A DNA stretch of 64,000 bases from Candidatus Pacearchaeota archaeon (lineage in GTDB: Archaea > Nanobdellota > Nanobdellia > UBA10117 > JABICX01). Made by a program: the position numbers and the translations under genes. The notes below the pieces were generated by a model. That model made no database searches and was not told where the DNA came from. It worked only from the letters and a program-made list of their open reading frames with translations. The stretch is taken from contig JAFCGM010000005.1 of the NCBI GenBank assembly GCA_017608025.1, forward strand, positions 984 to 64,983, given 5' to 3'. Of the stretch, positions 9,612 through 62,466 are shown in pieces (within the stretch, counting starts at the first letter, position 1; every line of letters begins with the position of its first letter).

Positions 9612-11807
9612 ATGGCAGTTGACAAAAAAACTGAAGAAGTATTGAAATTAATGAAGATGCCTGACGTAATCCGGAACATCGGAATTTGCGCTCACATTGA
9701 TCATGGTAAAACAACTCTTTCTGACAATCTTTTGGCTGGAGCTGGAATGATTTCAGAGGAGCTTTCTGGCAAGCAGAGAGCTATGGATTTCCTTGAGGAA
9801 GAGCAGCAAAGAGGAATCACAATCCAGACAGCTAATATTTCAATGGTTCACACAGTTAATGATAAAAAATACCTTATCAATCTATTAGACACACCAGGAC
9901 ATGTTGACTTTGGAGGAGATGTAACCAGAGCTATGAGAGCTGTAGATGGCGCAATTGTAGTTGCTTGCGCAGTTGAAGGAGTAATGCCTCAAACTGAAAC
10001 AGTTCTAAGACAAGCACTAAAAGAAAGAGTAAAACCAGTTCTTTTCATTAACAAAGTTGACAGGTTGATTTCTGAAGTAAAACTTACACCTGAGGAAATG
10101 CAAAAGAAATTTGTTAAAATCATAACAGATGTAAACAAAATAATCACTTCTGTAGCACCGCCAGAATTCAAGGACAAGTGGACTGTGTCTGTAAATGAAG
10201 GAACAGTTGCATTTGGTTCAGCATACCATAACTGGGGTCTGAGTGTAAATATGATGAAGAAAAACAATGTTTCCTTCAAGGATGTTATTGATGCTTATGC
10301 CAATGATAAACGTGAAGAACTTAGAAAGAAAGCAGCCCTACATGAAGCAGTTCTTGACATGGTTGCAAAGCATCTTCCAAGCCCAGTTCAGGCTCAGGAA
10401 TACAGAATTCCGCGTTTGTGGCAGGGAGATCCAGAATCTCCTCTTGGAAAAAAGCTAAGAAGCTGCAACTCATCTGGACCGCTCGTTTTTATAATCACAA
10501 AAATGATGGTTGACCCTCAGGCAGGGGAAATTGCATTTGGCAGAGTTTTCTCAGGAACACTTAAACGAGGAGAGGAAATTTATCTATCCTTGGCAAAACT
10601 TTCAACAAGAATTCAGCAGGTTGCTCTTTCAAAAGGAGCAAAGAGAATTATTGTTGACGAAGTTCCAGCAGGAAATGTAGCTCAGATTGTCGGACTCAAA
10701 GCAGGAAAATCTGGCGAGACTGTTTCCACAGACAAGGATGTACCTCCTTTTGAATCCATCAAGCACCTTTTTGACCCTGTTGTTACAAAGGCAATTGAGG
10801 CAAAGAACCCGCAGGACTTAGGAAAGCTCACTGAAGCCCTCAAGCAGATGGAGAAAGAGGATCCGACAATAAAAGTTACAATTAATGAAGAGACCGGAGA
10901 AAACCTTATTGCAGGGTTAGGAGAACTTCATCTTGAAATCAAGGAGCATATGATACAAAAAGATAAGGGAATTGATATTGTAACCTCAGAACCGATTGTC
11001 GTTTACAGGGAAACAATTGAAAAGCCGTCTGAAATACAAATGGGAAAATCCCCGAACAAGCACAATAAGTTATTTGTTAAGGTTGAGCCAGTCCCAAACG
11101 AAATCCAGCACGCAATAAAAAACGACAAGATTCCTGAAGCAAGAGTAAAGAAAAACAACCAGAAAGAAATTGTTGAAGCTCTTGTTGAGCACGGATTTGA
11201 CAGGAAAGAGGCAAAGTCAGTAAAGGACATATATAAAGGATGTATTTTTGTTGACGGAACTTCTGGAATTGTTCACATTCAGGAAATCATGGAAATGGTG
11301 CTTGACGCATTTGAAGAAGTCATTGACGCAGGACCACTTGCAGCAGAACCTGGAATCAACTTAAAAGTAACACTTGTTGATGCAAAACTCCATGAAGACT
11401 CAATTCACAGAGGTCCAGCTCAAATTATACCTGCAATGAGACAAGCAATTCACAATTGTTTACTTACAGCAGGAGATGTTCTTTTTGAGCCAAAGCAGAC
11501 AATTAGAATTGATGCCCCACTTGACTATCTTGGAGCAATTTCAAAATTAATTCAGGCAAGACGAGGACAGCTTTTGGACACAGAGCAGGACGAGCATTCA
11601 ATGACAATTAAGGCAAAACTTCCAGTAGCTGAAATGATTGGCTTCACATCAAGCCTTCGTTCAGCAACAGAAGGACGCGGAGCATGGTTCCTTGTTGACC
11701 AGTCTTATGAAAAGCTTCCAGCTGATTTGCAAAAGCAAACAGTAATGAGAATTAGAAAAAGAAAGGGAATGAAAGAGGAAATCCCTCAACCTGTCTTCGC
11801 CGAATAA
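9612..11807 (+). CDS. fusA: Translation elongation factor aEF-2
   Basis: AHIDHGKTT, RGITI, DTPGHVDF, NKVD; diphthamide loop HEDSIHRG. Confidence 0.98.
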   Translation: MAVDKKTEEVLKLMKMPDVIRNIGICAHIDHGKTTLSDNLLAGAGMISEELSGKQRAMDFLEEEQQRGITIQTANISMVHTVNDKKYLINLLDTPGHVDFGGDVTRAMRAVDGAIVVACAVEGVMPQTETVLRQALKERVKPVLFINKVDRLISEVKLTPEEMQKKFVKIITDVNKIITSVAPPEFKDKWTVSVNEGTVAFGSAYHNWGLSVNMMKKNNVSFKDVIDAYANDKREELRKKAALHEAVLDMVAKHLPSPVQAQEYRIPRLWQGDPESPLGKKLRSCNSSGPLVFIITKMMVDPQAGEIAFGRVFSGTLKRGEEIYLSLAKLSTRIQQVALSKGAKRIIVDEVPAGNVAQIVGLKAGKSGETVSTDKDVPPFESIKHLFDPVVTKAIEAKNPQDLGKLTEALKQMEKEDPTIKVTINEETGENLIAGLGELHLEIKEHMIQKDKGIDIVTSEPIVVYRETIEKPSEIQMGKSPNKHNKLFVKVEPVPNEIQHAIKNDKIPEARVKKNNQKEIVEALVEHGFDRKEAKSVKDIYKGCIFVDGTSGIVHIQEIMEMVLDAFEEVIDAGPLAAEPGINLKVTLVDAKLHEDSIHRGPAQIIPAMRQAIHNCLLTAGDVLFEPKQTIRIDAPLDYLGAISKLIQARRGQLLDTEQDEHSMTIKAKLPVAEMIGFTSSLRSATEGRGAWFLVDQSYEKLPADLQKQTVMRIRKRKGMKEEIPQPVFAE

Positions 11808-11889
11808 TCTCTTTTTTTTATTTTAGTTTTCTTTTTAGTATGGGTTTTTTTCTAAAAGAAAAAAGCATCAACCTGTTTTTGCAGAGTAA
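11787..11889 (+). repeat. EF-2 tail, hairpin module, then a synonymously recoded copy of the tail
   Basis: 11787-11807 CAA CCT GTC TTC GCC GAA TAA versus 11869-11889 CAA CCT GTT TTT GCA GAG TAA (both QPVFAE*). The copy is preceded by GGTTTTTTTCTAAAAGAAAAAAGC. Confidence 0.8.
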
Positions 11890-11949
11890 TTTTTCCTCAT
11901 TTTTTATTTAGATACTCTTTTATATTCTGATTAATATGTTTAACCAGTA

Positions 11950-13035
11950 ATGGATATGAAGAAAGTTAATATTATCTTGATTTCAACCTTTGCAATTTTA
12001 ATAATTCTTTTTTCTGCACCGCACATAATAGGAAATTTAATAACAAGTACAGGCTCAGAACAGGTGTTAGAGGAAGTTAATGTTATTTTCCAGAACTCAA
12101 CAACCCTTGAAATAATGCCAAATGTTTCTGCAGATGAATACCTCTCTTCAGTAAAAGTTTCTGGAGAATATTCTGGAGAAGGCGAGCTGAAAATTTATCT
12201 TCTTGATAAGAATAACAAGTATATCCTTTACGACAACACAGCAAAAAAGCCATCAGCATTGACTGGATTCTTTGCTTACACTGGCCTTGCAAAAGAAGAC
12301 AAAGAAGAAAAGCAAGACCAGCAGAAAAAGAAACAAGAAGAAAAGCAAGACCAGCAGAAAAAGAAACAAAAAGAAACTGAAGCTGAAGCAGAAGAACCAG
12401 AAACACTAGCAGAACAACCTGAAACAGAGGAAGAGCAAACCGAAGCCGAGCAAGAAGAAGCTGAGGAACAAGAACAAAAAGAATTAGAAAAGCAACCTGA
12501 AACTGAAGAGCAGGAATCTCCAGAAGAGCCAGAACAAACCTCAGAGCCAGAACCAGAAAACCAAACACAGCCAGAAGAGCAATCTCCAGCGCAAGAAACA
12601 AATGAAACAGCAGAAGAGCAGGAAGTAATTCCTAAAAATGAAACACAATCAGAAGCCCCAGAGACAAACCAGACATCTGAAGAAACAGGGTCAGAAAACC
12701 AAACAATTGCAGAGCCAGAACCAGAAAACCAAACAGAAGAAGCACCGCAGGAAACCCAGCAAACAGCAACATCAAGCGCATCATCTTCTAGCTCATCGTA
12801 CTCTCCCGCAGTTGAAATCCCTGAAGAGCCAGAACAAACACAGAAAACCTCTTTATCAAGCCCAACAGTTGAGATTCCAGAAGAGGAGTTTGAAAACAAG
12901 TTTGAGAATGAATGCGGAGAAGCATGCCAGCTCGAGCTTGAGCCAGGAACATACAAAATAGTTATAGTTACAGAGCAGGGCAGAGTAAAAGGAATTCTTT
13001 CAAAAATTATTTTTGAAATAAGAAAAAGAACTTAA
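11950..13035 (+). CDS. Membrane-anchored/exported acidic low-complexity surface protein
   Basis: N-terminal TM/signal, long E/Q/P/T-rich linker with multiple N-x-T sequons, CGEAC near the C-terminus. Confidence 0.75.
   Translation: MDMKKVNIILISTFAILIILFSAPHIIGNLITSTGSEQVLEEVNVIFQNSTTLEIMPNVSADEYLSSVKVSGEYSGEGELKIYLLDKNNKYILYDNTAKKPSALTGFFAYTGLAKEDKEEKQDQQKKKQEEKQDQQKKKQKETEAEAEEPETLAEQPETEEEQTEAEQEEAEEQEQKELEKQPETEEQESPEEPEQTSEPEPENQTQPEEQSPAQETNETAEEQEVIPKNETQSEAPETNQTSEETGSENQTIAEPEPENQTEEAPQETQQTATSSASSSSSSYSPAVEIPEEPEQTQKTSLSSPTVEIPEEEFENKFENECGEACQLELEPGTYKIVIVTEQGRVKGILSKIIFEIRKRT
12302..12367 (+). repeat. 33-bp in-frame tandem repeat (2 copies)
   Basis: AAGAAGAAAAGCAAGACCAGCAGAAAAAGAAAC twice. 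Confidence 0.9.
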
Positions 13036-13104
13036 TTGTTACTGCTAAATAGAAACATTTATAAACAAATTTCTATATTCTAGACTCTATAATAAGAGCT
13101 TAAA

Positions 13105-13581
13105 ATGGAAACACCACATAAATCAGATTTGCTTTGGGCAATTAAGGAAATTCACAAAGCAGAATCTTCTTTTGATTTGGAAGAAGAAAACCGACATTAC
13201 AATTCAGCAAGAACAAGATTAAATAATGCTTTGAGGCATGATACAAATTTCTTGCCAGCCCAAATTCTTTATGAAAGGTCAACTCAGAGCTCCAATTTAA
13301 GAATCAATCAGATTCATAAAATTCTTAGAAATTTCCCAGGCTCAAAAATAAGGAACGCAATTCTTTATTTGGACATTGCAAAAGTATATGCGAAAAAATA
13401 CTGGAAAGAAAATGATGTTAATGAAAAAAGCCCAAACAGATTAAAAGTAATTGAATATGTAAAAAAAGCAACTGACGAAACACCACATAATTCGCAAGTA
13501 ATTGAAGAAGCATTTTATTTCTTTGATACTCTTGGTGCATACAAAGAAGCAAAAGCACTTGAAGAAAAATTATTAAAATGA
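13105..13581 (+). CDS. Hypothetical helical (TPR-like) protein
   Basis: 158-aa ORF with TPR-like spacing of small/aromatic residues. Confidence 0.55.
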   Translation: METPHKSDLLWAIKEIHKAESSFDLEEENRHYNSARTRLNNALRHDTNFLPAQILYERSTQSSNLRINQIHKILRNFPGSKIRNAILYLDIAKVYAKKYWKENDVNEKSPNRLKVIEYVKKATDETPHNSQVIEEAFYFFDTLGAYKEAKALEEKLLK

Positions 13582-13910
13582 TGTCTTTGGAAGAAAAACA
13601 AGCACAATTAAAGCAGGCAAGAAACCTAATCTTAAAAAACACCAGAGAATCACTTGAAAAAGCTCTTGATATTTATGTTCATCTTCTTAATAATAACATG
13701 AAAAGCCCTGTGCTTCATGCAGCAATTGCAAGAATATATTTAAGTTTAGGTGAGCCCTTAATGGCAAACATTTATGCTGGCGAGGCTGTTGCTTTTGATA
13801 GGAGAAACCCTGAAATGTATTATCTTGAAGCACAAACTTTTGATGCTTTAGGAAAATACGACCTGTCTGCAAAATGCAGAAGAATAGCAATGGAATTGAA
13901 AAATGAATAA
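13578..13910 (+). CDS. TPR-repeat protein
   Basis: AAIARIYLSLG...AVAFDRRNPEMYYLEAQTFDALGKY. Confidence 0.7.
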   Translation: MMSLEEKQAQLKQARNLILKNTRESLEKALDIYVHLLNNNMKSPVLHAAIARIYLSLGEPLMANIYAGEAVAFDRRNPEMYYLEAQTFDALGKYDLSAKCRRIAMELKNE

Positions 13911-17120: not shown

Positions 17121-17200
17121 TGCGTTCGTAGCTCACGGCCCAAAACTGAGCCGGCGAGCTGATTACGCATGCTCTTCGAGTAGTGTAATGGAATGTGGTT
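17121..17200 (+). repeat. Copy of the tRNA-Thr 5' end followed by structured sequence
   Basis: TGCGTTCGTAGCTCA at 17121-17135 equals 17201-17215. Between them lie hairpins CGGC...GCCG and ATTACGC-ATGCTC-TTC-GAGTA-GTGTAAT. Confidence 0.8.
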
Positions 17201-17201
17201 T

Positions 17202-17347
17202 GCGTTCGTAGCTCAGTCTGGTAGAGCGATGGTCTTGTAATGAATTCCTTTCAAAAAGGTCTTCACCCTAAGTCTGGCGGAAAACCGATGATTCTGAAAG
17301 GAAAACTGGAAAACCATAGGTCGAGGGTTCGATTCCCTCCGAGCGCT
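17202..17347 (+). tRNA. tRNA-Thr(TGT) with a 72-nt intron at 37/38 (17240-17311)
   Basis: Acceptor GCGTTCG/CGAGCGC, anticodon stem ATGGT/ACCAT, loop CT-TGT-A|A, T-loop TTCGATT; relaxed BHB. Confidence 0.88.
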
Positions 17348-17549
17348 GCCTTTTAGAAAAAGGCAAGTTGCCAAAAATTCTCGCTTCGCTCGAAAACGGT
17401 TTTGCAGAAGCTTTTTTTAAAAGCTTCAGTCGAGCGGATGATTCCCTCCGAGCGCTGCCTTTTAGAAAAACTAAAGTTCTTCTTTCATGAACATTTCTTT
17501 TTAAGAAAGGTTCTGCAAGTTGCCAAAAATTCTCACTTCGTTCGAAAAT
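17331..17549 (+). repeat. tRNA-Thr tail duplication with hairpin modules
   Basis: 31-bp GATTCCCTCCGAGCGCTGCCTTTTAGAAAAA at 17331 and 17440; GCAAGTTGCCAAAAATTCTCrCTTCGyTCGAAAA at 17363 and 17516. Confidence 0.9.
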
Positions 17550-20512: not shown

Positions 20513-20587
20513 GGGCCTGTGATCTAGTCCGGTTATGATGTCGCCCTTACAAGGCGAATGTCGGCGGTTCAAATCCGCCCAGGCCCA
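20513..20587 (+). tRNA. tRNA-Val(TAC)
   Basis: GGGCCTG/CAGGCCC acceptor; TCGCC-CTTACAA-GGCGA anticodon arm; TTCAAAT T-loop. Confidence 0.95.
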
Positions 20588-20686
20588 TTGGTTCAAAAAA
20601 TGCTCAGACGGAAACTAAATAGGTTTTCTTTTGGAAACTTACCTTTTCTTTTTTGAAAAGAAAAGGGAGATCCGCCCAGGCCCATT
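20573..20686 (+). repeat. tRNA-Val tail duplication with hairpin module
   Basis: 17-bp ATCCGCCCAGGCCCATT at 20573 and 20670; the copy is preceded by CCTTTTCTTTT-TTG-AAAAGAAAAGG. Confidence 0.9.
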
Positions 20687-24542: not shown

Positions 24543-24640
24543 GGGCGGGTAGCACAGTCTGGCAGTGCGTTTGCTTCGCAATAACTTTAACAGAAAAACG
24601 AAAAAGCAAAAGGTCCTGAGTTCAAATCTCAGCCCGTCCA
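24543..24640 (+). tRNA. tRNA-Ala(CGC) with a 24-nt intron (24581-24604)
   Basis: GGGCGGG/CCCGTCC with the G3:U70 Ala determinant; TTTGC/GCAAA stem; TTCG pairs with intron CGAA as the central helix. Confidence 0.92.
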
Positions 24641-24750
24641 CTTGAAGCTTTTCTTTAGAAAAGAAAATCTTCTGCAAAAGAAACCACTATTTGGGAATGC
24701 AAACACTTTTTTAAAGGGTTTGCCCTGGGTATCAAATCTCAGCCCGTCCA
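24622..24750 (+). repeat. tRNA-Ala tail duplication with hairpin modules
   Basis: 19-bp TCAAATCTCAGCCCGTCCA at 24622 and 24732; the copy is preceded by GCAAACACTTTTTTAAAGGGTTTGC. Confidence 0.9.
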
Positions 24751-25053: not shown

Positions 25054-25128
25054 GGGTCCGTAGCTCAGTCTGGCTAGAGCACTTGGCTCTTAACCAAGGG
25101 GTCGCGGGTTCAAATCCCGTCGGACTCG
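25054..25128 (+). tRNA. tRNA-Lys(CTT)
   Basis: GGGTCCG/CGGACTC; CTTGG-CTCTTAA-CCAAG. Confidence 0.95.
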
Positions 25129-25320
25129 CTTGAACCTTTCTCTTGTAAGAGAAATGTTCTCGAAAGAGAACGTATTATTTTTTCTTTGGGCAACTTACAC
25201 TTTCTTTTTTCTAAAAAGAAAGGGCAGAATCCCGTCGGACTCGCTTGAATCCCTTTTCAAAAAAGTCTTCACTCCAAAACAATTTTTGGGAATGAAATCG
25301 CTTTTACAAAGAAAAAAGCA
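25113..25320 (+). repeat. tRNA-Lys tail duplication with an inverted pair of hairpin modules
   Basis: 22-bp AATCCCGTCGGACTCGCTTGAA at 25113 and 25228; the copy is preceded by TTTGGGCAACTTACA-CTTTCTTTTT-TCT-AAAAAGAAAG; more modules follow. Confidence 0.9.
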
Positions 25321-27595: not shown

Positions 27596-30028
27596 ATGAT
27601 TGACGTAGTCCGTAATTTTATACACAAAAAAGAAAGGGAAATTCTTAAGAATTCTAATTCTGTACTGCGAGAATTGAATCATAAGTGGAAAAATATTGTT
27701 GAAAAAGACATTTACTTAACATATCCCCTACGAAAGGAAATAGAGACCAATATCAGTAAATACTATAATGAGATTTCAATACCGTGGTACTTATTCTGGG
27801 ACTGGAAACTAAAATCAAAAATTTATGCAAATGATAAGGACATACAATCATGTGAAAAAAAGTTAGAAACATATAATTCTGATTTTGTAGCTAAAAAGAA
27901 AAAAGAATATGCGTCTTTATTCAAAAAAGGAGATCTTGTTTTAGATGATGATCAAAAAACTGCAATAATTAAGGATGATGTGCATAATTTGGTTGTTGCG
28001 GGAGCGGGTTCTGGAAAAACTGAAGTGCTTACTACACGAATTGCATATTTAGTAAAAAGGAAAGGAGATCGAATTAAGCCCGAGCGAATTTTAGCCTTAG
28101 CGTTTCAAAATAAAGCTGCAGACGAAATTAGAAATAGACTGAGAAAAAGATATAATATTGATATAGAAATAAAAACCTTTCATGCGCTTGGTAAAAAAAT
28201 AATAGAAACATACGCTAAGAAAAATAAAATAGAAATTCCAAGACCAAATCAATCTTGTTGCGAAGAAAGAAAATTTAATAATTTCATTAAAGGTTTATTT
28301 AAAATTATAAGTTTGAAGAGTTCTGATTTTAACAACAAAGTTATTGAATATATGAAATCATATGCTGATTTTGAAATAATAAAAAATGAGACAGATTTCA
28401 CAGAGAAAGAAGAGTATTATAAATATATGCGAAGTTTAAGGTACACTGCAATAAATGGACAAAAAGTAAAAAGTGAAGGAGAAAGAGCTATTCTAAACTT
28501 TTTTTTAATGCATAAAATTAATGGGCAAGAAATAAATATAAAATATGAAGCTCCTGCAGAATGGATGAGGTATAGAAATGAAAAAGGCAATGAAATTATT
28601 CCTAAACCAGACTTCTTTTTCCCACAATTTGATATTTATCTCGAACATTGGGCAATTAATAAAGATGGAAAAGTTCCGAATTGGTTTTTTGGAGAAGATC
28701 CAACAGAGGAATATATTAAAGGAATGAATATTAAGAAAAAAAAGTATTTTGCACATAAAAAAGAGTTAATTGAAACAACTTATGCAGATTTCGCTAAAGA
28801 AGATTTTCTTGATAAATTAGAGCAAATATTCTTAAAAAGAATTAGTAAAAAAAAGCCTAAACAAAAGTTTAAATTAGAAAGAATACCTTACGAAAAGCTA
28901 GTTAATAAAACATGGGAATCTGCTCAATTTGTAAAAAGCCTTCCAGGACAAATTGCAAACTTCATAACAATCGCAAAAACATATAATTTAGATGTTAAAG
29001 GTATTGAAGAACGCCTCTCAAAAGAAGACTGGTCAAAAAAACAAATAGCTTTTTCTGAAATTGCTTTAATTGTTTTTGATTACTATCAAAAAATACTAAG
29101 AAAAACAAATACTATTGACTTTTCAGATATGATAAATTTAGCTGTAAAATACCTAAAAAGCGACAAGAAACTTTTTGAGGACGCTTATGATCACATTCTT
29201 GTTGATGAATTTCAGGATATAAGTATGCAACGATATAGACTAATTAAAGAGCTTATGAATAAAAACAAGAACTGCAAATTATTTTGCGTTGGTGATGACT
29301 GTCAAAGCATTATGGGATTTTCTGGATCAAATCTTAATTATTTCTTAGACTTTAACAAATACTTTGATTTCCCTGAAAGAACAGATTTAACAGTAAATTA
29401 CCGGAGCATTAAGTCTGTAGTTGACCTTGGATCAGAGATAATAAAACACAATAAAAATCAAATAAAAAAGAAAGCAGTAGCAAATTCAGATCTATCTAAA
29501 AAAATTGTCCTTTATTCTTCACTTTATCCTGAAAAAGAATTCACAAATTATTATAATCAAACAATTAAGCATTGCTTTAATAAGATAAAAGAGTATCACG
29601 ATAAAGGATATTCTTATGCTAATTTTATGATATTATTAAGGATTTCAAAAGGAAAAATAAAAACAATAATCAATGATGTAGCAGATCAGATGAAAATCCC
29701 AATATCGTTTGAAAGAGGCGATCTTCCAAATCGAGTTCGCGTTATGACTGTTCATAAAAGTAAAGGACTTCAGTCAAAAGTTGTCTTTATACTAAGATTA
29801 AACAACGGAATATATGGTTTTCCTTGTCAATTACATGATCCAGATATTTTTGAACCAGCAATTATTAATAATAACACACTAAGAGAGCAAGAAGAAAGAC
29901 GATTATTCTATGTCGCAGTAACTAGAGCCAAAGAGGATGTTTTTATGTATACTCAACAAGGCGCCGAAAGCAAATTCATCAAAGAGATTGAAGATTTTGT
30001 TAAAAGAGAGGAGTTAAGTACTAATTGA
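27596..30028 (+). CDS. UvrD/helicase IV-like SF1 helicase with an internal PD-(D/E)xK-like insert
   Basis: AGAGSGKT, VDEFQD, VGDDCQSI, NYRS, TVHKSKGLQ, EERRLFYVAVTRAK; insert KVKSEGE...PDFF...YLEHWA. Confidence 0.9.
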   Translation: MIDVVRNFIHKKEREILKNSNSVLRELNHKWKNIVEKDIYLTYPLRKEIETNISKYYNEISIPWYLFWDWKLKSKIYANDKDIQSCEKKLETYNSDFVAKKKKEYASLFKKGDLVLDDDQKTAIIKDDVHNLVVAGAGSGKTEVLTTRIAYLVKRKGDRIKPERILALAFQNKAADEIRNRLRKRYNIDIEIKTFHALGKKIIETYAKKNKIEIPRPNQSCCEERKFNNFIKGLFKIISLKSSDFNNKVIEYMKSYADFEIIKNETDFTEKEEYYKYMRSLRYTAINGQKVKSEGERAILNFFLMHKINGQEINIKYEAPAEWMRYRNEKGNEIIPKPDFFFPQFDIYLEHWAINKDGKVPNWFFGEDPTEEYIKGMNIKKKKYFAHKKELIETTYADFAKEDFLDKLEQIFLKRISKKKPKQKFKLERIPYEKLVNKTWESAQFVKSLPGQIANFITIAKTYNLDVKGIEERLSKEDWSKKQIAFSEIALIVFDYYQKILRKTNTIDFSDMINLAVKYLKSDKKLFEDAYDHILVDEFQDISMQRYRLIKELMNKNKNCKLFCVGDDCQSIMGFSGSNLNYFLDFNKYFDFPERTDLTVNYRSIKSVVDLGSEIIKHNKNQIKKKAVANSDLSKKIVLYSSLYPEKEFTNYYNQTIKHCFNKIKEYHDKGYSYANFMILLRISKGKIKTIINDVADQMKIPISFERGDLPNRVRVMTVHKSKGLQSKVVFILRLNNGIYGFPCQLHDPDIFEPAIINNNTLREQEERRLFYVAVTRAKEDVFMYTQQGAESKFIKEIEDFVKREELSTN

Positions 30029-40550: not shown

Positions 40551-40661
40551 GCCTTATTATATTGTTCCCAGCAGAAATCCCTTTAAAAAGTGATTTCATT
40601 CCCAAAGAAAGCTTCAGAAAATCACTATTAAAAACTACAGCCTTATTATATTGTTCCCAGC
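40551..40661 (-). repeat. rad50 tail duplication with hairpin module
   Basis: 22-bp GCCTTATTATATTGTTCCCAGC at 40551 and 40640; on the minus strand the copy is preceded by GAAATCACTTTTTAAAGGGATTTC. Confidence 0.9.
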
Positions 40662-46687: not shown

Positions 46688-48565
46688 ATGAGTATCTTAG
46701 ACAAAATTCTAGAGAAATTACCAAGAGAGACGCAAATATCCAGCACGAGCTATGAAGGCGCAAACATTATTCTCTACACAAAAAGCAGGAAATTTTTTCT
46801 AAATAGCGGAGACATAATCCGGCAGCTTGTTGATGAATTCAAAAAAAGAATTGAGCTTCGTGCAGATGCAGCAATACGAAAGTCAGAAGAGGATTCTGAA
46901 AAAATTCTCAAAAAACTATTTCCAAAAGATGCTGAAGTCACAAATATTGTATTCCTGCCTTCGCAATCCCAAGTAATAGTTGAAGCGAAAAATCCTGGAA
47001 GAGCAATTGGAAAAGATGGCGAGATATTAAAGGAAATCAAGGAAAAAACATCATGGACACCTTTTATCAAAAGAGAGTCAGTTGTTACTTCAAACATAAC
47101 AAATAACATTCGCAAGGTTCTTTATGAGGACAATGCAGAAAGACAGCGTTTCTTAAATAATGTTGGAAAGCGAATTTATGAAATAAAAAAAGCAACTTCT
47201 TCTGAAAAATGGGTCCGACTTTCAGTTCTTGGCGGAGGTCGTCAAGTAGGACGTTCATGCTTCTTGCTGCAGACACCAGAATCAAAGGTTTTGATTGACT
47301 GCGGAATAAATCCTGCAGCATCAAATTCAGGAGAATTTCCATATCTCACCGCACCAGAGTTAAATCTTCAAGACCTTGATGCTGTAATTGTTTCTCACGC
47401 TCATTTGGACCACTCAGGCTTTGTGCCTTACCTTTTCAAATACGGATACAAAGGTCCGGTTTACTGCACAGAACCAACTCGAGACATTTCATCTCTTTCG
47501 CAGCTTGACTATATTCAAGTAAGCCATGCCCAGACAAAAAAAGCCCCGTATTCCAGCACAGACATAAAAGAGGCAGTAAAGCATACAATTGTTTTGGATT
47601 ACAATGAAGTGACAGATATAACTCCTGATGTTCGAATTACGCTTTACAATGCAGGCCACATTCTTGGCTCTTCTCTTGTCCACCTTCATATTGGCGAAGG
47701 TTGGCACAACATTCTCTATACAGGAGACTTCAAGACAAAGGAAACTCAATTGCTTAATCCAGGGCATTCTGAATTTCCTCGCGTTGAAACTTTAATAACA
47801 GAAAGCACCTATGGAAAGCCGGACGACTTAATGGCTCCGCGCAAGGAATCAGAAAACGAGCTTGCAGAGTTTGTAAAGTCAACAATAAAAAGAAAAGGAA
47901 AAGTTATTATTCCAGTACTTGGAGTTGGCCGTGCGCAAGAAGTTATGATAATTCTTGAAGAAATTTTTAGGAAAAGCAAAATAAATGTTCCAATTTACAT
48001 TGACGGAATGGTTTGGGACATGACTGCAATTCACAATGCCTATCCAGAATATCTAAATAATTCTATTCGCGAGAAAATCTTTTACAAAGACAGAAACCCT
48101 TTTCTTGCAGGGAACTTCAAAAGAGTCGGCTCAGCAAAGGAAAGAAAGCAGGTTATTGATGGAGGCTCTTGCGTTATTTTGGCAACATCGGGTATGCTTG
48201 TTGGAGGTCCGTCAGTTGAATATTTGAAAAAATTAGGTTCAGACAAGAAAAACTCCTTGGTTTTTGTTTCCTATCAGGCAGAAGGCTCTTTGGGAAATAA
48301 CATTCAGAGAGGAGATACATCATTTTCAGAAGACGGCGAAACCTATGAAGTTAATCTTGACATTAACACTGTTCCTGGATTATCAGGACATTCTGATAGA
48401 GAAGAGCTGTTAACTTATGTTCGAAAAATGACTCCAAGGCCGAGAAGAATTATCGTAGTTCATGGAGACAACCAGTCATGCCTAAACCTTGCTTCAGCTT
48501 TCCACAAGGAATTTCACATAGAGACTACAGCACCGAGAAATCTGGATGTTCTTCGGTTACGTTAG
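46688..48565 (+). CDS. KH-domain beta-CASP ribonuclease aCPSF1 (termination factor FttA)
   Basis: Two KH domains, HAHLDH, AGHILGS, GRAQE, SGHSD, VHGD; next to psmB as is usual in archaea. Confidence 0.95.
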   Translation: MSILDKILEKLPRETQISSTSYEGANIILYTKSRKFFLNSGDIIRQLVDEFKKRIELRADAAIRKSEEDSEKILKKLFPKDAEVTNIVFLPSQSQVIVEAKNPGRAIGKDGEILKEIKEKTSWTPFIKRESVVTSNITNNIRKVLYEDNAERQRFLNNVGKRIYEIKKATSSEKWVRLSVLGGGRQVGRSCFLLQTPESKVLIDCGINPAASNSGEFPYLTAPELNLQDLDAVIVSHAHLDHSGFVPYLFKYGYKGPVYCTEPTRDISSLSQLDYIQVSHAQTKKAPYSSTDIKEAVKHTIVLDYNEVTDITPDVRITLYNAGHILGSSLVHLHIGEGWHNILYTGDFKTKETQLLNPGHSEFPRVETLITESTYGKPDDLMAPRKESENELAEFVKSTIKRKGKVIIPVLGVGRAQEVMIILEEIFRKSKINVPIYIDGMVWDMTAIHNAYPEYLNNSIREKIFYKDRNPFLAGNFKRVGSAKERKQVIDGGSCVILATSGMLVGGPSVEYLKKLGSDKKNSLVFVSYQAEGSLGNNIQRGDTSFSEDGETYEVNLDINTVPGLSGHSDREELLTYVRKMTPRPRRIIVVHGDNQSCLNLASAFHKEFHIETTAPRNLDVLRLR

Positions 48566-48649
48566 TTTATTATTTTCCGCCGCCGCTTTTTTGAAAAGGG
48601 GCGTGAGGCCACTGCTCCAAGAAATCTGGATGTGTTGAGGTTGAGATGA
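48527..48649 (+). repeat. aCPSF1 tail, hairpin module, then a synonymously recoded copy of the tail
   Basis: 48527-48565 and 48611-48649 both encode TAPRNLDVLRLR*; the copy is preceded by CGCCGCTTTT-TTG-AAAAGGGGCG. Confidence 0.9.
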
Positions 48650-54410: not shown

Positions 54411-55688
54411 ATGAAAACAACCTTTATTCGAGACATTTTGAAAAAATCCAAGGCAGGGAAAACAGTTGAAGTCTGCGGATGGGTTTACAGAAAACGGGAA
54501 ATGAAAGACAAGATATTTCTTGTAATTAGGGATTCAACAGATATTATGCAGGTAATTGTTACAGACAAGTCAGATGCATGGAAATCTGCACAGAAAGTTA
54601 CAATAGAGTCTTCAGTAATAATTTCTGGAACTTTGAAGCAAGACTTTAGAGCACCCACTGGCTATGAACTGAAAGCAGAAAAACTGGAAATAGTAGATCT
54701 TGCAGAAAGATTCCCAATTTCAAAAGATCTTTCAACAGAATTTTTAATGGATGTCCGCCATCTTGCTTTAAGAGGAATTAAGCAGGCAGCAATTATCAAG
54801 CTTAGGTCCCAAATGTTTATGGCATTTCATGAGTATTTTCGAAAAAACAAGTTCATTGAAGCAGAAGCCCCTTCATTCATGTCTCAAGGTTCAGAAGGGG
54901 GCTCAGAAGTTTTTCAGGTAAAATATTTTGGAAAAAAAGCATTCCTAACTCAGTCATGGCAGTTTTATGCAGAGAACATGATTCATGCTTTTGAAAATGT
55001 TTATGCTCTTGCTCCTTCTTTTCGCGCAGAAAAATCCTCAACAAACCGCCACTTAACAGAATACTGGCACCTTGAAGTTGAGTCTGCCTGGGCAAACCTT
55101 AACGACATAATCAACCTTACAGAAGGATGCATATCTGCTGTGATTGACAAACTGCTAAGTGAAAATTCACGAGAGCTGGAGATTGTTGGAGTTGACAAAA
55201 AATGGCTTAATTCACTTAAGCCACCATACAAGAAAATAACATATTCAAAAGCAGTAAAAGAATTGCAGAAAAAAGGATTCAAAATCAAAGAAGGGCAAGA
55301 TTTTGGAGCTCCGCATGAAAAGGAATTGGCAAAAAACGGCCCGATTTTTGTAACCCATTATCCAATGTCAATTCTGAAGTTTTACCATGGAGAAGACCCA
55401 AAAAATCCAGGCTATGGAACAAACTTTAATCTTCTTTTTCCTGAAGTCGGAGAAACAGTTGACGGCTCCCAAAGAGAGCCAGAACTGGAAAAAATAAAAC
55501 AGCGCCTCAAAAAAGCGAAAATAAACCTTGGAAAATCTGACTGGTATCTGGATTCACGGAGATATGGTTCAGTGCCACATGCAGGCTTCGGCCTTGGAAC
55601 AGAGCGCCTTTTGCAGGCTCTTTTGAAACTCGACCACATCCGAGACATTTTGCCATTCCCTAGGTTTATGAACCGAATAAGACCATAA
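54411..55688 (+). CDS. asnS: Asparagine--tRNA ligase
   Basis: OB fold, LTQSWQ, FRAEKSSTNRHLTEYW, RRYGSVPHAGFGLG. Confidence 0.9.
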   Translation: MKTTFIRDILKKSKAGKTVEVCGWVYRKREMKDKIFLVIRDSTDIMQVIVTDKSDAWKSAQKVTIESSVIISGTLKQDFRAPTGYELKAEKLEIVDLAERFPISKDLSTEFLMDVRHLALRGIKQAAIIKLRSQMFMAFHEYFRKNKFIEAEAPSFMSQGSEGGSEVFQVKYFGKKAFLTQSWQFYAENMIHAFENVYALAPSFRAEKSSTNRHLTEYWHLEVESAWANLNDIINLTEGCISAVIDKLLSENSRELEIVGVDKKWLNSLKPPYKKITYSKAVKELQKKGFKIKEGQDFGAPHEKELAKNGPIFVTHYPMSILKFYHGEDPKNPGYGTNFNLLFPEVGETVDGSQREPELEKIKQRLKKAKINLGKSDWYLDSRRYGSVPHAGFGLGTERLLQALLKLDHIRDILPFPRFMNRIRP

Positions 55689-55990
55689 AATATTGTTCTA
55701 ATCTCTTTGAGATTGTTCTTTTGGCAACTTACCTTTTCTTTTGAAGAAAAGGCAGGGGTTTTATGAACCGAATAAGACCATAAAATATTGTTCTAATCTC
55801 TTTGAGATTGTTCTTTTGGCAACTTACAGAAACTTTTTAGAAAAAAGTTTCATCAAAAAATAAATTTGTTTCTTTTTGAAACTTACTTGTTTTTTCTTAG
55901 AAGGCGTAGCCGCCTTAGGCTTTGCCTTAGTGGAGGTTCTTTTTTAAAGAAAGTCCTTTGAAAGAAAAGGGAGTGAGAAAGTGCAGAGTA
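55665..55990. repeat. asnS tail duplication (68 bp) plus hairpin modules up to tRNA-Ser
   Basis: 55665-55732 equals 55760-55827, separated by CTTTTCTT-TTG-AAGAAAAG-GCAGGGGT; further modules are shared with the tRNA-Leu locus. Confidence 0.9.
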
Positions 55991-57139: not shown

Positions 57140-57745
57140 ATGGCTAAAATAAAATTAATCATCTTTGACATTTGGAATACGCTTATGTACACACATGAAA
57201 ATAAATTAGATGTTATGCTTGAGCTTTTAGGTATTGATGAAGCAACATTCAGAGATGGAATAAAGCGAATGTGTCTTTCTAAAATGTCTATTGAAGATCT
57301 TTTCTCAGAATTTACAACAGATAAAAAGAAACTTAAAACTGCTGTTGATTTATGGATGAATGATAAAGTTACTATTTACAAGGATGTTATTCCTACGCTG
57401 AATGTATTATATGGGAAAATTAAGATGGCAATTCTTTCTAACTCTTCAACATACATAAGAGAATTTTTGAAGGAAAAAAGGATTTCTGCGTATTTTGATA
57501 AGATTTATTTGTCTGCAGAATACGGACTTCTTAAGCCAGATCCAAGGCTTTTTAATATAATTCTTAAAGATTTTAATTTAAAACCAGAAGAAGTAGCAAT
57601 GGTCGGCGACAAGGAAAGCAAAGACATCGCCCCAGCCAAGCAAAAGGGAATTCTCGGAATTTTGATTGACAGAAAAAACTCAAAAGAGAAAATCCTTGCT
57701 GACTACAAAATTCAGAATTTGAGAGAAATAGAAAAGATAATTTAG
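57140..57745 (+). CDS. HAD-superfamily hydrolase
   Basis: FDIWNTL, LSNS, KPDPRLF, MVGD...DI. Confidence 0.9.
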   Translation: MAKIKLIIFDIWNTLMYTHENKLDVMLELLGIDEATFRDGIKRMCLSKMSIEDLFSEFTTDKKKLKTAVDLWMNDKVTIYKDVIPTLNVLYGKIKMAILSNSSTYIREFLKEKRISAYFDKIYLSAEYGLLKPDPRLFNIILKDFNLKPEEVAMVGDKESKDIAPAKQKGILGILIDRKNSKEKILADYKIQNLREIEKII

Positions 57746-57935
57746 TTTTCTTTTGGCAACTTGGGTTTTCTTTTTCTAAAAGAAAAGCCAGCTGACTACA
57801 AAATTCAGAATTTGAGAGAAATAGAAAAGATAATTTAGTTTTCTTTGGGTTACCTTACCACATTCTTTTCTGTAGAGCAGTTTCTTTCGGGTTGTAAGAA
57901 GCTATATTTTTCCGTGAATGCTTTTTCTAAAATAG
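57698..57935. repeat. HAD tail duplication (56 bp) with hairpin modules
   Basis: 57698-57753 equals 57791-57846, separated by TGGCAACTTG-GGTTTTCTTT-TTCT-AAAAGAAAAGCC-A; TTTTCCGTGAATGCTTTTTCTAAAA module near 57907. Confidence 0.9.
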
Positions 57936-58597: not shown

Positions 58598-58640
58598 TCT
58601 AGTAAAAAATTAAAAATACAAGTATAAAAATATTTGGAAA

Positions 58641-59081
58641 TTACTTTTCAGAGCCTTTTTCAATTCCAATAATTTTAATCCTGAAATTCAGGTTTTTTCC
58701 TGCAAGAGGATGATTCATATCAATAGTAATATCTTGTTCAGATACTTCAATGATTTTCGCAGGGATTTTCTGTCCTTCTGAAGTTGTTAAAGCAAGAACC
58801 ATTCCTTTCTTTGCTTCAGGCTCTTTTGGAAGCTTGTCTTTTGGAATTTTTTGTATTAAGTTTTCATTTTTTGGTCCGTAAGCATCTTTAACATCAATGT
58901 GAATATTCTTTTCCTCATTTTCATTCATTCCAATTACTGCTTCGTCAAATCCTTTTATTACATCACCATTTCCAGCTATAAATTCCAGAGGTTCTTTGCC
59001 CTCTGAAGAATCAAAAACTTTTCCATCTTCTAACATTCCAGTGTATTCAACTTTAACTGTATCGCCTTTTTCAACTGCCAT
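58641..59081 (-). CDS. slyD: FKBP-type peptidyl-prolyl isomerase (SlyD-like)
   Basis: GDTVKVEYTG, VFDSS, AYG, DMNHPLAGK. Confidence 0.93.
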   Translation of the reverse strand: MAVEKGDTVKVEYTGMLEDGKVFDSSEGKEPLEFIAGNGDVIKGFDEAVIGMNENEEKNIHIDVKDAYGPKNENLIQKIPKDKLPKEPEAKKGMVLALTTSEGQKIPAKIIEVSEQDITIDMNHPLAGKNLNFRIKIIGIEKGSEK

Positions 59082-59259
59082 TGTTGTTTAAATGGTAAGG
59101 TGTTCTTTTATAAGCTTATAGGTCTTTTAGAAGATATTGGACAAATCCCCTAAATCTTTTTATACTAAAGATTAAAAAAGATTTTCTAAAGAGATTCCAA
59201 AAAGCAACCAATACATTGCTTGCAATGCGCTCCGCGTGAATCTCTTCGTGAGAAGAACA

Positions 59260-61131: not shown

Positions 61132-61699
61132 GAGAACATTAAGTATGGAATCTGTTGAAGAAGCAAAAACACTTCTTAAAAATGAAATAAGTGAACAGAA
61201 TTTAATAAAGCACTGCTTAGCAGTTGCCGCAATTATGAAAGCTATTGCTAAAAAGCTTGGTGAAAATGAAAATTTATGGGAGATAACAGGACTTTTGCAT
61301 GATTTTGACTATGAGGAAACAAAAGACAATCACAAACAGCACGGATTGATTGCATCAGAAAAATTAAAGCAAAAACTTCCTCCAGAATCCTTACATGCAA
61401 TTGAGGCACACAACTTCGAAAATACTTCAGTACTCCCCGAATCAAAAATAGATTATGCTTTGATTGCAGCAGACGCAATTTCTGGTTTGGTAATTGCAAC
61501 AGCTCTTGTTAGGCCCTCAAAAAAGCTTGAGGATGTAAAGCCGAAAAGTATAAAAAAGAAATTCAAGCAAAAAGAATTTGCAAAAAATTGTTCTCGGAAA
61601 AAGATTCTCTACTGCGAAAAACTGGGAATTGAGCTTTCAGAATTTATTGAAATTTCCCTAATTTCTCTAAAAAGAATATCTAAAAATCTTGGGCTCTAA
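61121..61699 (+). CDS. HD-domain (HDIG) phosphohydrolase
   Basis: KHCLAV, GLLHDFDY, HG, AH, ADAISG. Confidence 0.88.
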   Translation: MKIKRTLSMESVEEAKTLLKNEISEQNLIKHCLAVAAIMKAIAKKLGENENLWEITGLLHDFDYEETKDNHKQHGLIASEKLKQKLPPESLHAIEAHNFENTSVLPESKIDYALIAADAISGLVIATALVRPSKKLEDVKPKSIKKKFKQKEFAKNCSRKKILYCEKLGIELSEFIEISLISLKRISKNLGL

Positions 61700-61905
61700 T
61701 TATTTTTTGGTTTGTAGTTATTTCCTGATTTGTATTCTTCCAGAGACTGCTTGTAGCGGAAAATTCCACCAATTTCTTCTCCATTTTTGTTGTAAAGAGG
61801 ACGGAATTCAGTATCTTTGAGAAGACATTCTAAAAAACTGCGTTCTTCTTTTGGAAAAATTTTTTTTCTTAAGTAATTTATAATTTTCATTATGATACCT
61901 CGCAT
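61696..61905 (-). CDS. Small hypothetical protein
   Basis: About 64-69 aa; GAGGT SD before the second Met. Confidence 0.45.
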   Translation of the reverse strand: MRGIIMKIINYLRKKIFPKEERSFLECLLKDTEFRPLYNKNGEEIGGIFRYKQSLEEYKSGNNYKPKNN

Positions 61906-61989
61906 TGAATTTTGTGATATTTCATTTATAAAGGTATTGGTTTAAAATATCAAAACGCTTAAAAAACACAATAAGTTTTTCTAGACTAT

Positions 61990-62073
61990 GCTAGGGTACC
62001 CAAGCGGTCAAAGGGGCAGGACTTAAGATCCTGTGGCTTAGTGCCTTCCGGGGTTCGAATCCTCGCCCTAGCA
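61990..62073 (+). tRNA. tRNA-Leu(TAA)
   Basis: GCTAGGG/CCCTAGC; CAGGA-CTTAAGA-TCCTG; long variable arm; A73. Confidence 0.94.
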
Positions 62074-62466
62074 CTGCCCTTTCTTTCCCAAAGAAAGTGC
62101 AAGTTGCCCAAAGAAAAACAACAATAGTTCTTTGCAAACACCAAAGAAAATGCTTCGGTCATAATAACCTATTTATTCGAAAGAAAAACAACAATAGTTC
62201 TTTGCAAACTTATTATTTTTGATGAAACTTTTTCTAAAAGTTTCTTTTTGATGAAACTTTTTCTAAAAGTTTCTGGGGGATGCAAACACTTTTCTAAAGG
62301 GTTTGCAGGGGTTAAGAATCCTCGCCCTAGCACTTTCTCTTTTAGAAAAAGAGAACCTGCACTAAGAGAAAACTAATCTTTAAAAAAAGATGCATCAAAA
62401 ATGTTTCGCTGCCGCTTAACATACTTTTCTTTTTTGAAAAGAAAATATCATCGCCCTAGCACTGCC
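62057..62466 (+). repeat. tRNA-Leu tail present three times, with nested hairpin modules
   Basis: Tail copies at 62316-62334 (19 bp) and 62451-62466 (16 bp); internal 30-bp repeat (62110/62180) and 29-bp tandem (62216/62245). Confidence 0.9.

Follow-up and report, generated by a model that had tools for sequence, protein, structure and literature searches.

Duplicated gene ends in the window

The window is a stretch of 64,000 nt from one contig of a tiny Woesearchaeota-type archaeal genome (700 kb, ~ 89% coding), designated G000. All 11 second copies of gene 3' ends that a preliminary description had placed at 10 of its loci are present, each where it had put them or a few bases away (Table 1). 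In each event, a short-range direct repeat (T, copies T1 and T2) brackets a small insert (I), giving the layout T-I-T. By our reading, each of these 11 copies is also preceded by a T-run/loop/A-run hairpin in gene orientation, ending no more than 12 nt upstream, as had been described.

The tRNA-Thr locus displays a perfect 31-nt tail copy, in a layout that is identical in G001, a same-genus genome from an independent assembly, and its spare head precedes the gene, which starts at 17202, by 80 nt (by eye). The EF-2 tail copy, though diverged, retains QPVFAE and the stop in translation, and that of aCPSF1 is 76% identical to the live tail and allele-like, with a stop overlapping the ATG of the next small ORF. 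The F3a module at tRNA-Val consists of a T-rich flank motif, a hairpin and GGGAG, the tRNA-Lys insert combines an F9 double hairpin with an F3b module, and the 67-nt rad50 insert contains an F5-like hairpin. At asnS, T1 ends with the flank motif of F3 (17 nt), after which just the hairpin half of an F3 module was added, and T2 is followed by a different hairpin module (F2). Within the tRNA-Leu stretch there are also two F2 modules in tandem (62213-62270) and, at 62110-62209, a unique filler of 40 nt bracketed by a 30-nt duplication. The weak copy of a pseudoknot element (PK) has its 5' end 2 nt from the complement of the start ATG of a plus-strand gene.

Table 1. Duplicated gene ends, inserts and associated features (window coordinates)
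Feature	Position	Strand	Remark
EF-2 live 3' end (QPVFAE + stop)	11787-11807	+	tail read in translation
EF-2 T-run/loop/A-run hairpin and diverged tail copy	11843-11889	+	copy 11866-11889
tRNA-Thr head duplication, spare first 14 nt	17122-17135	+	by eye
tRNA-Thr gene, intron-bearing	17202-17347	+	Rfam
tRNA-Thr T1	17331-17361	+	last 17 nt of gene + 14 nt downstream
tRNA-Thr hairpin, then AGTCGAGCGGAT, then T2	17407-17470	+	T2 17440-17470
tRNA-Val T1	20573-20589	+	17 nt
tRNA-Val F3a module, then T2	20624-20669; 20670-20686	+	module 46 nt
tRNA-Ala gene, intron-bearing	24543-24640	+	Rfam
tRNA-Ala T1	24622-24640	+	
tRNA-Ala F5 hairpin module, then T2	24689-24724; 24732-24750	+	
tRNA-Lys T1	25113-25134	+	22 nt
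tRNA-Lys insert and T2	25135-25249	+	T2 25228-25249
rad50, whole event	40551-40661	-	live tail 40640-40661, spare copy 40551-40572
aCPSF1 live tail	48521-48565	+	ETTAPRNLDVLRLR, then stop
aCPSF1 F1-type hairpin module, then tail copy	48574-48605; 48605-48649	+	copy EATAPRNLDVLRLR, then stop
asnS T1, hairpin insert (27 nt), T2	55665-55732; T2 55760-55827	+	68 nt perfect
HAD hydrolase T1, F3-type insert (37 nt), T2	57698-57753; T2 57791-57846	+	56 nt perfect
PK element, weak copy	59225-59257	-	nhmmer E = 0.028
tRNA-Leu tail and copies	62057-62075; copies 62316-62334, 62451-62466	+	stacked modules between

Genome-wide extent of the pattern and nature of the inserts

The genome contains ~ 100 such short-range direct repeats, about one event per 7 kb, with T of 17-70 nt, mostly 100% identical between copies and different at every locus. 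Among 98 local repeats, the median T is 29 nt and the inserts measure 4-240 nt (median 74). Inserts in the genome, 4-260 nt overall, carry no genes and are too small for one, and no result points to a foreign origin of the ORFs that follow tail copies; the proposed import of accessory genes is thus not supported. Start-to-start spacings peak at 60-120 nt, 61 of the 94 local repeats outside genes falling at 40-140 nt and just 1-2 per 100-nt bin beyond 340 nt. The genome-wide scan of gene tails that had been suggested was positive, with a copy of the last 15 nt (≤ 2 mismatches) within 450 nt downstream of 13 of the 33 tRNAs (0/33 each on the opposite strand and on the upstream side) and a copy of the translated C-terminus plus stop within 600 nt downstream of 32 of the 705 genes (opposite strand 2/705), a pattern far above chance. 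Contrary to the initial view, the phenomenon is not confined to 3' ends, and aim at those of conserved genes is not supported: when 113 pairs are sorted by site, 41 lie at a tail, 7 at a head, 3 at head and tail, 46 at none of these and 16 inside a gene (one also scored as tail, the majority being ordinary protein repeats), and duplication also affects intergenic DNA, further repeats and two sites in frame within genes. The 41:7 bias of tails over heads is what selection would leave.

The insert sequences are members of repeat families with copies elsewhere in the genome, and the single hairpin family first proposed gives way to at least six modular hairpin families, besides which stands one pseudoknot element, which is new; some inserts are unique fillers. 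In a clean example at a tRNA-Leu (C28:62882), a 52-nt T is followed by a 46-nt F3a module plus one base and by the same 52 nt. Among nine F3a copies, five lack a flanking duplication (noise ≤ 5 nt) and the others have 23, 32, 47 and 52 nt, none being classically short. The majority of PK copies are intergenic; two, of 93 nt each, lie in frame in the C-terminal tails of ribosomal proteins L24 and L32e, where they are read through and 27-30 nt of gene are duplicated. Wherever a duplication is detectable at a PK copy, T1 lies 0-3 nt from GTCC and the opposite end is variable.

A perfect-stem hairpin lies within 12 nt before the second copy in 29 of 97 events genome-wide, and after the first copy in 37 of 97, against a background of 11.5%, so that the association is an enrichment and not the rule that the window had suggested. 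Both insert ends are structured, the spare-copy end slightly more (21 vs 13 of 34 events, Wilcoxon p = 0.30). T boundaries are sharp in ~ 85% of cases, and identity just outside T reaches 3.9 and 4.05 of 11 positions on the two sides, compared with 2.96 and 3.24 in shuffles (0/2000 reach the observed values).

A genome-wide search gave no match for reverse transcriptase, Y1/HUH, TnpB or Cas1 genes, and the earlier remark that the window holds no candidate enzyme stands for the families searched. The sole transposase in the genome is a single-copy IS5-type DDE gene (167.7 bits; 17.4 bits against the IS1634 model, cut-off 100), whose flanks show no terminal repeats resembling the modules, and the genome contains no repeated IS above 600 bp. 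IS5 elements are known for short duplications. Hairpin-directed nick-and-join of the HUH/REP type, the lead option of the preliminary description, would suit modules that are hairpins with a conserved flank, ending in TTAC in some F3 copies, and the fold of the pseudoknot on one strand only (U.G pairs) would suit a single-stranded intermediate. However, Y1_Tnp found no match in a genome rated 91.5% complete, the flank motif varies between families and HUH transposition is not known to make a target duplication; we regard this route as highly improbable.

Site-specific integration would explain the copies as scars of elements that carried a replacement 3' end and were later deleted to a stub between attL and attR. 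Such elements yield allele-like tail copies, the T of tRNA events begins (by eye) in or near the T-loop, a known crossover sublocation, and two tyrosine recombinase genes are present (C8:80725, 171.6 bits; on contig C24, a protein of 234 aa, 42.3 bits). Already contradicted by how many and how varied the targets are, this reading is largely refuted and has very little probability: ~ 100 different targets are struck, among them heads, intergenic DNA and in-frame sites, T length is continuous, and the gene-free inserts are built of shared small modules. The earlier exclusion of classical att scars and of short, fixed-length DDE duplications is borne out by the length range of T, its locus specificity and the gene-free inserts.

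Related genomes and diverged tails

In G001, tRNA-Lys, tRNA-Gln and two tRNA-Leu lack the tail copy that is present in G000; at three of these four sites there is no module, and one tRNA-Leu site has different modules. The distance from asnS to tRNA-Ser is ~ 37 nt in G001 against ~ 300 nt in G000. The orthologous-locus comparison proposed at the outset has in this way yielded what appear to be empty sites, which favour target duplication. The PK pattern was counted 18 times in G000 and 3 times in G001 but was absent from the other 37 genomes searched of the order, a distribution that points to a lineage-specific burst; on a 21-kb contig from a relative further removed, 0 events were counted.

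All T-I-T junctions were read from assembled contigs, and a metagenome assembly artefact, for instance k-mer-overlap duplication, has a recognizable counterpart in G001, where 55 nt, 100 N and the same 55 nt follow each other and one of the three pseudoknot events has T = 55 beside an N run. At least 5 of the 21 pairs in 337 kb of this genome flank or include N runs (T55 or T43) and are scaffolding artefacts, while the remainder includes real events with T of 28-48 nt. In G000, however, T lengths are evenly spread over 17-70 nt with no k-mer spike, N is present in only one contig, the inserts are specific repeat families and reading frames are kept in diverged copies; together with N-free events of the same kind at other loci in the independent assembly, this makes an artefact very unlikely.

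Across 14 diverged tail pairs, whose selection on amino-acid score favours synonymous differences, 51 of the differing codons are synonymous and 30 non-synonymous, where neutral decay would give ~ 14 and 73 (0 of 5000 simulations as extreme). Since live and spare tails differ mostly synonymously, the two copies would be different alleles, and inter-lineage recombination would also be at work. The duplication itself could then stem from one-ended recombination instead of element insertion: a fragment from a related lineage, ending just after a hairpin module, would recombine by homology on the gene side, an illegitimate joint would fix its hairpin end a few tens of nt upstream of the corresponding point in the resident gene, and the resident tail, displaced downstream, would become the spare. 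Such stacking of alleles is consistent with the codon differences (synonymous to non-synonymous 9:1 in aCPSF1 and 9:2 in C25:52505), with a gene tail that is present in three successive versions, a pseudoknot element standing ahead of each, with the spare tails of tRNA-Gln and tRNA-Lys, which carry bases found in the G001 allele (by eye), and with a fixed module end turned toward the spare copy in 16 of 19 F-type or pseudoknot events (by-eye tally). The score-based choice of pairs weakens the codon argument, yet this bias cannot by itself account for cases as extreme as the top three. Against stacking, most T pairs show 100% identity, events in frame or between genes offer no gene anchor, T never exceeds 70 nt, which the model does not predict, and the G001 ortholog tail of C8:53311 resembles the live tail more than the spare ones, which gives no clear direction. 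The donor must, moreover, already carry a module after its tail, so that a primary insertion process would still be required, and we consider stacking an unlikely source of the duplications.

Proposed origin and comparison with known systems

The tail copies are probably duplications flanking inserted miniature elements. Small, non-coding structured modules of 20-100 nt would have spread through G000 and its sister species as non-autonomous elements, each new copy being set between two copies of the 17-70 nt of DNA that it entered. The two joints may form independently rather than by a paired transposase complex, one at a module end that is fixed (immediately beyond the hairpin, or GTCC in the pseudoknot), and the other loosely, within the module, in short homology or after unique filler; the stretch between these opposite-strand joints would be completed by fill-in synthesis, or copied a second time once the template had switched backward, and the target thereby duplicated. 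The fixed GTCC end, the half module at asnS, the unique fillers and the similarity of T flanks point to such independent joints, a mechanism that we advance tentatively, as somewhat short of an even chance. Homology does help some joints, as at asnS and in the similarity of T flanks, and the allele-like behaviour of diverged tail copies fits the homology-assisted recombination envisaged earlier.

Selection would retain only insertions that leave the gene intact and, because so much of the genome is coding, most tolerated insertions would fall at gene ends, where a long duplication restores the gene and a spare tail, or less often a spare head, is left over. The synonymous bias is beyond what plain decay of such a duplication can produce, and a later exchange of alleles between lineages is therefore assumed, through which some spare tails may be fossils of another allele. 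Taken as a whole, this account seems to us evenly balanced between right and wrong. The absence of a matching enzyme counts against target duplication, as does the mixed orientation of modules relative to the neighbouring gene (co:anti 13:17 for F3, 5:8 for F1 and 11:1 for F2). Many module copies have no flanking duplication, so that a second spreading route or a fast loss of duplications would be needed. In addition, a new module is often placed precisely against the border of an earlier one (T-E1-T-E2), and the tRNA-Thr event is common to two species, yet perfect in each; target duplication predicts neither.

Like MITEs and REP/BIME elements, the modules are small, non-coding, palindromic and mostly intergenic, and recombine in different orders. 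REP/BIME elements depend on RAYT and are not known to make target duplications, whereas here the genome search found no RAYT or Y1 gene and the duplications span 17-70 nt. The in-frame, read-through pseudoknot copies resemble Rickettsia palindromic elements, which insert in frame into protein genes, but the elements described here are shorter, duplicate part of the gene and are mostly intergenic. Integrative elements with a replacement 3' end share the order of live tail, insert and displaced tail, in which the displaced allele may differ synonymously; unlike them, our events have no integrase or cargo between the copies and ~ 100 unrelated targets.

For prokaryotic MITEs, PMC11602168 gives duplications of 2-10 bp, far below those found here, and a high MITE density in a Woesearchaea genome. 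IS1549 and IS1634 come closer, with long target duplications varying from copy to copy in small AT-rich host genomes; PMC2266710 gives variable direct repeats of 8-514 bp and no model for them, and the IS1634 family is said there to be common in Euryarchaeota. These elements are autonomous, 1.5-2 kb long and carry their own transposase, unlike our non-coding inserts. MITEs of the classical kind, mobilized in trans by a DDE transposase whose target stagger is comparably wide and irregular, could draw on this precedent, on the 9-nt inverted ends of the F3a module (TTTTCTTTT ... AAAAGAAAA, by eye), on the sharpness of most T boundaries and on the one DDE gene of the genome. That gene is, however, single-copy and IS5-type, no IS1634-type transposase was found in the genome, inverted ends are absent from the pseudoknot elements, partial modules, unique fillers and joint homology are unlike transposase products, and MITE duplications are far shorter; we hold this origin to be rather unlikely. 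Template switching of the MMBIR/FoSTeS type (PMC2621351) likewise leaves a short duplication with, at the joint, a segment templated by another site, and the homology at some joints and the unique fillers agree with it. By contrast, the pieces copied here are recurrent, discrete structured modules with one fixed end, at a density of about one event per 7 kb.

Duplicated gene ends in the window and across the genome

The source genome (700,509 bases in 34 contigs, about 34% G+C, rated 91.5% complete) is that of a DPANN-type archaeon and is very compact, with 806 genes on 89% of its DNA according to our own rough gene calling. The window corresponds to positions 984-64983 of its contig C21. Reading of the window and an independent repeat finder both recovered all 11 second copies of gene tails that the preliminary description had reported and, by eye, a T-run/loop/A-run hairpin ended at most 12 nt upstream of the copy in 11 of 11 cases. 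The feature it noticed is real and unusual, but was drawn too narrowly, since gene heads, intergenic sites and in-frame sites are duplicated too, and this throughout the genome. For the tRNAs of the window, ARAGORN returned nine genes and Rfam supplied tRNA-Thr and tRNA-Ala besides, both carrying long introns and overlooked by the default mode of ARAGORN. Between positions 28000 and 34000 of the window, G+C drops to 0.24-0.29 vs about 0.35 elsewhere and many short ORFs occur; this stretch may be a foreign island.

A whole-genome self-comparison revealed 134 repeat pairs on the same strand and spaced by less than 700 nt, 98 of which passed our filter (duplication T of at least 17 nt, identity of at least 95%, spacing of at most 260 nt), with T spanning 17-70 nt (median 29) and the insert between the copies 4-240 nt (median 74). 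Lengths of T and insert were negatively correlated (rho = -0.45), their sums gathering near 90 nt. Start-to-start spacing fell within 40-140 nt for 61 of the 94 pairs outside genes, and only 1-2 pairs per 100-nt bin were found beyond 340 nt, so that chance adds little to the pattern. A downstream copy of the last 15 nt was detected for 13 of 33 tRNAs (0/33 in each of two controls). A translated copy of the C-terminus was detected for 32 of 705 genes, where the opposite strand gave 2 of 705. Classified by site, 113 pairs comprised 41 at tails, 7 at heads, 3 at head and tail, 46 at neither and 16 inside genes, the latter being mostly ordinary protein repeats (one was counted as a tail too).

Of 97 events genome-wide, 29 had a perfect-stem hairpin ending at most 12 nt ahead of the second copy and 37 had one starting at most 12 nt past the first, against a background of 11.5%, and the insert ends folded with means of -4.7 and -4.0 kcal/mol vs -1.45 kcal/mol in random non-coding DNA. 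Next to the spare copy (the second copy of a tail, beside the insert), structure was not significantly stronger (21 vs 13 of 34 events, p = 0.30), and module orientation relative to the upstream gene was mixed, with no consistent co-orientation. Hairpins lie at the junctions because the insert is itself a hairpin module, and not as marks of tail copies.

Coordinates and attributes of the main features (C, contigs of the source genome; L, loci of this genome or its relatives; PK, pseudoknot element)
Feature	Location	Description	Source
tRNA-Thr	window 17202-17347	intron-bearing, gene spans 146 nt	Rfam
tRNA-Ala	window 24543-24640	intron-bearing, gene spans 98 nt	Rfam
asnS tail repeat		86 nt, 91% identity, 68-nt perfect core	repeat finder
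HAD tail repeat		59 nt, 98%	repeat finder
tRNA-Thr tail repeat		60 nt, 82%	repeat finder
tRNA-Leu tail		three copies	repeat finder
aCPSF1 tail repeat		38 nt, 76%	repeat finder
ABCE1 head duplication	C25:54327	first 34 nt of gene and 20 nt upstream	
tRNA head duplication	C25:74757		
tRNA-Thr head duplication	in window	first 14 nt of gene	
PK copies	C8:23210, 26319, 27187, 28472, 53160, 98349		
PK copies	C28:93743, 107080, 144103		
PK copy	C25:74779		
PK weak copy	window 59225-59257 (-)		
L24 with in-frame PK	C8:26234-26809	locus L009	
L32e with in-frame PK	C8:23086-23868	locus L009	
tRNA-Lys	C25:27847	no tail copy in same-genus genome	
tRNA-Gln		no tail copy in same-genus genome	
tRNA-Leu	C28:62814	no tail copy in same-genus genome	
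tRNA-Leu	C8:11214	no tail copy in same-genus genome	
Scaffolding artefacts of same-genus genome	L121:4243, L123:12177, L129:6798		
IS5-family DDE transposase	C8:48200-49186 (-) (locus L101:1414-2400)	328 aa, single copy	NF033579, 167.7 bits

Insert modules and the pseudoknot element

The inserts are assembled from short modules with further copies elsewhere in the genome. In most modules, a 10-17-nt flank adjoins a hairpin whose centre resembles TTTTAGAAAAA. In the F3 module family this flank is TTCTTTTGGNAACTTAC, and the core GGNAACTTAC occurs four times in the window vs 0.3 expected; its 46-nt form, F3a, counts 9 copies, has 9-nt inverted ends (by eye) and is flanked either by no duplication or by one of 23-52 nt. 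Module order varies between inserts, and tandem arrays form. By eye, one fixed module end abuts T directly (just outside the hairpin in F3, at GTCC in the pseudoknot element) while the other end is variable, a feature that seems real. A k-mer mask intended to tell element from target covered 86% of this AT-rich genome and gave no separation. The 37-nt F1 module forms tandem arrays at two contig ends (C21:1-95 and C8:1-114) and another at C28:80809-80952; as the assembly breaks at F1 arrays, module copy numbers are lower bounds.

A separate family, PK, consists of GTCCTTC, a 6-nt loop, AAGGGAC, NCA and the complement of the loop, followed by a variable hairpin, so that the loop of the first hairpin pairs with its 6-nt complement shortly downstream. 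Across 13 copies of this pseudoknot helix, two-sided changes affect 5 of 6 pairs and 92% of the cells pair, giving a covariation score of 0.445 vs 0.160 in shuffles (0/500 as high) and at most 0.15 for slid partners. Six U.G pairs at one position show that the GTCC strand folds, and not its complement; this folding strand is antisense to the operon genes that PK interrupts. No Rfam family matched PK, the best matches besides tRNA (E = 0.8 and E = 2) remaining well under the gathering scores. Judged from its covariation, PK is a new predicted family of structured nucleic acids. We counted its pattern 18 times in the source genome and three times in the same-genus genome; the other 37 genomes searched from this order lacked it. 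PK is restricted to this genus among the genomes searched.

In our reading, 10 of 27 PK copies adjoin the complement of a start codon. The ribosomal proteins L24 and L32e carry PK and a 27-30-nt duplication in frame in their lysine-rich C-terminal tails, 93 nt each in all, adding peptides with ...GEDSASVGPFAGRT... and ...GEDSTAVGPFSRRT...; L24 homologs elsewhere align only to about residue 159 of 191.

Probable insertion sites, joints and enzyme searches

Comparison with the same-genus genome, which shares about 73-75% identity with the source genome in asnS and aCPSF1, yielded evidence for insertion: it has no tail copy at four tRNA loci duplicated in the source genome, the tRNA-Lys, tRNA-Gln and C28 tRNA-Leu sites being without module and the C8 tRNA-Leu site carrying different ones. 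Likewise, the distance from asnS to tRNA-Ser is about 37 nt there vs about 300 nt in the source genome. The architecture of a clean event is a 52-nt T, F3a plus one base, then the same T. At other loci, the same-genus genome carries events of its own (T of 28-48 nt), along with scaffolding artefacts that mimic target duplications (55 nt, 100 N, the same 55 nt). Such N-flanked repeats must be left out of event counts in automated scans, and a 55-nt T beside N makes one of its three PK events suspect.

The tRNA-Thr duplication (window 17331-17470; L124:17776 in the same-genus genome) is common to both genomes, with a homologous insert end. Its two copies are identical inside each species, yet T differs between the species, whose genes are ~25% diverged, which suggests concerted evolution by conversion, or recurrent hits with re-insertion. 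A metagenome scan with AsnS returned no strain-level allele of an empty site, the best match having 76% amino-acid identity. Two related contigs, L022 and L045, were identical to each other and about 89-93% identical to a third (L023); duplications flanking an insert were absent from L022 and from ten other related loci scanned, a set comprising neither L023 nor L045.

A plain transposon reading meets obstacles at the joints, several of which look recombinational. The asnS target already ends in the F3 flank, the hairpin half alone having been added; the HAD joint falls inside a shared TTTTCTTT; T at ABCE1 and at C26:57563 begins with the usual continuation of the module; and certain inserts are unique 16-40-nt fillers. 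Similarity just outside T exceeded chance on both sides (identity at 7 or more of 11 positions in 7 and 5 of 60 events, vs 1.2 and 1.6 expected), and T boundaries were mostly sharp despite this excess.

The enzyme complement of the source genome also speaks against it. The HUH/REP-type enzyme put forward in the preliminary description found no support, Y1 (PF01797) having no match at E <=0.01 in a genome rated 91.5% complete, and searches of the same genome returned no match to reverse transcriptase (PF00078) or Cas1 (PF01867), no TnpB gene and no repeated IS. The only transposase found is the single-copy IS5-family gene (best model IS5_2), whose flanks have no convincing terminal repeats and no end similarity to the modules; for the IS1634 family, NF033559 reached 17.4 bits vs a cut-off of 100. 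The recombinase searches gave one XerA-like protein and, on contig C24, a short protein resembling an integrase, neither lying between T copies.

Allele-like spare tails and relation to known systems

Where the spare tail has diverged from the live tail, the gene's own 3' end, the differences are mainly silent, with 9 synonymous vs 1 non-synonymous codons for aCPSF1, 9 vs 2 at C25:52505 and 7 vs 5 at C8:53311. Over 14 tail pairs we counted 51 synonymous vs 30 non-synonymous differences, where random decay of a copy would give ~14 vs 73 (0/5000 simulations); picking these pairs by protein similarity biases them toward a synonymous excess, but this bias alone does not account for the most extreme of them. 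A copy that is no longer coding would lose its frame in the time that the live gene needs to saturate its silent sites; both tails must therefore have been coding when they diverged, in separate lineages. The event itself then joined foreign DNA to the resident sequence, unless the allele was replaced later by crossover in the conserved module. At C8:53080-53370 (locus L011), the last 17-19 codons of the C8:53311 gene stand in three serial versions, each preceded by PK, which reads like a fossil stack of alleles.

These observations are best described as a probable lineage-specific burst of miniature structured elements inserting with long, irregular target duplications, with allele exchange on top. 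It is improbable, in our view, that the modules owe their spread to a transposase-free, 'retro-like' mobility by template switching. They would then be structured RNAs of small size, or single strands, whose 5' end is fixed, and a host polymerase would copy them into DNA at breaks or stalls, with no dedicated transposase or reverse transcriptase required; run-off at the template 5' end would leave the sharp joint, re-priming 17-70 nt back on the chromosome would create the duplication, and old and foreign gene tails would become stacked as fossils.

Prokaryotic miniature repeats have been viewed as tied to a partner transposase and as leaving 2-10 bp duplications; in this 0.7-Mb symbiont-type archaeal genome, where no partner transposase was found, about 100 insertions have 17-70 nt duplications. 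Should the junctions hold in reads, the burst would provide a second and far simpler system, after IS1634/IS1549, for long irregular duplications, and would show how a streamlined genome tolerates a burst of selfish DNA, the duplication repairing the gene struck. It would also have left fossils that can be dated, stemming from earlier or foreign alleles of such core genes as EF-2, aCPSF1 and tRNAs, and with them a gauge of between-lineage recombination in uncultured DPANN archaea. The combination of long duplications with miniature structured elements was without description in the literature searched, whose main texts gave no account, for Woesearchaeota or DPANN, of miniature repeats flanked by long duplications; their supplementary tables may bear on this.

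As the preliminary description had rightly argued, att scars and ordinary DDE duplications fail as explanations: integrases act at one or few targets and leave an integrase and cargo between the repeats, whereas 113 pairs at unrelated sequences, with inserts of 4-260 nt, are found here. HUH elements derived from REP/RAYT or IS200/IS605 systems are not known to duplicate their target on insertion, in contrast with the many copies lying here between long duplications. Target-primed reverse transcription needs a reverse transcriptase and CRISPR-type or casposase integration needs Cas1, neither of which was matched in the source genome. Homology-facilitated illegitimate recombination, which calls for one homologous anchor, a microhomology joint and a foreign donor, fits the allele-like spare tails and the excess similarity at T edges, but the two copies of T are mostly identical and a gene anchor is lacking from many events.

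For the elements themselves, RPE-type repeats count among the nearest precedents. The others are MITE and REP/BIME repeats as presented in PMC11602168, a paper that names a Woesearchaea genome with high MITE density in its Table S2. Classical MITEs leave a short duplication of fixed length, given as 2-10 bp in PMC11602168, unlike the variable 17-70 nt seen here. They also share terminal inverted repeats with an autonomous IS in the genome; no such match was found in the flanks of the only DDE gene. For the duplications, an element of IS1634 type would be expected to come with a transposase of its own family, not found in the source genome, but it produces long direct repeats of variable length at insertion, as are seen here. 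IS1634/IS1549, as portrayed in PMC2266710, are the nearest precedent for these duplications.
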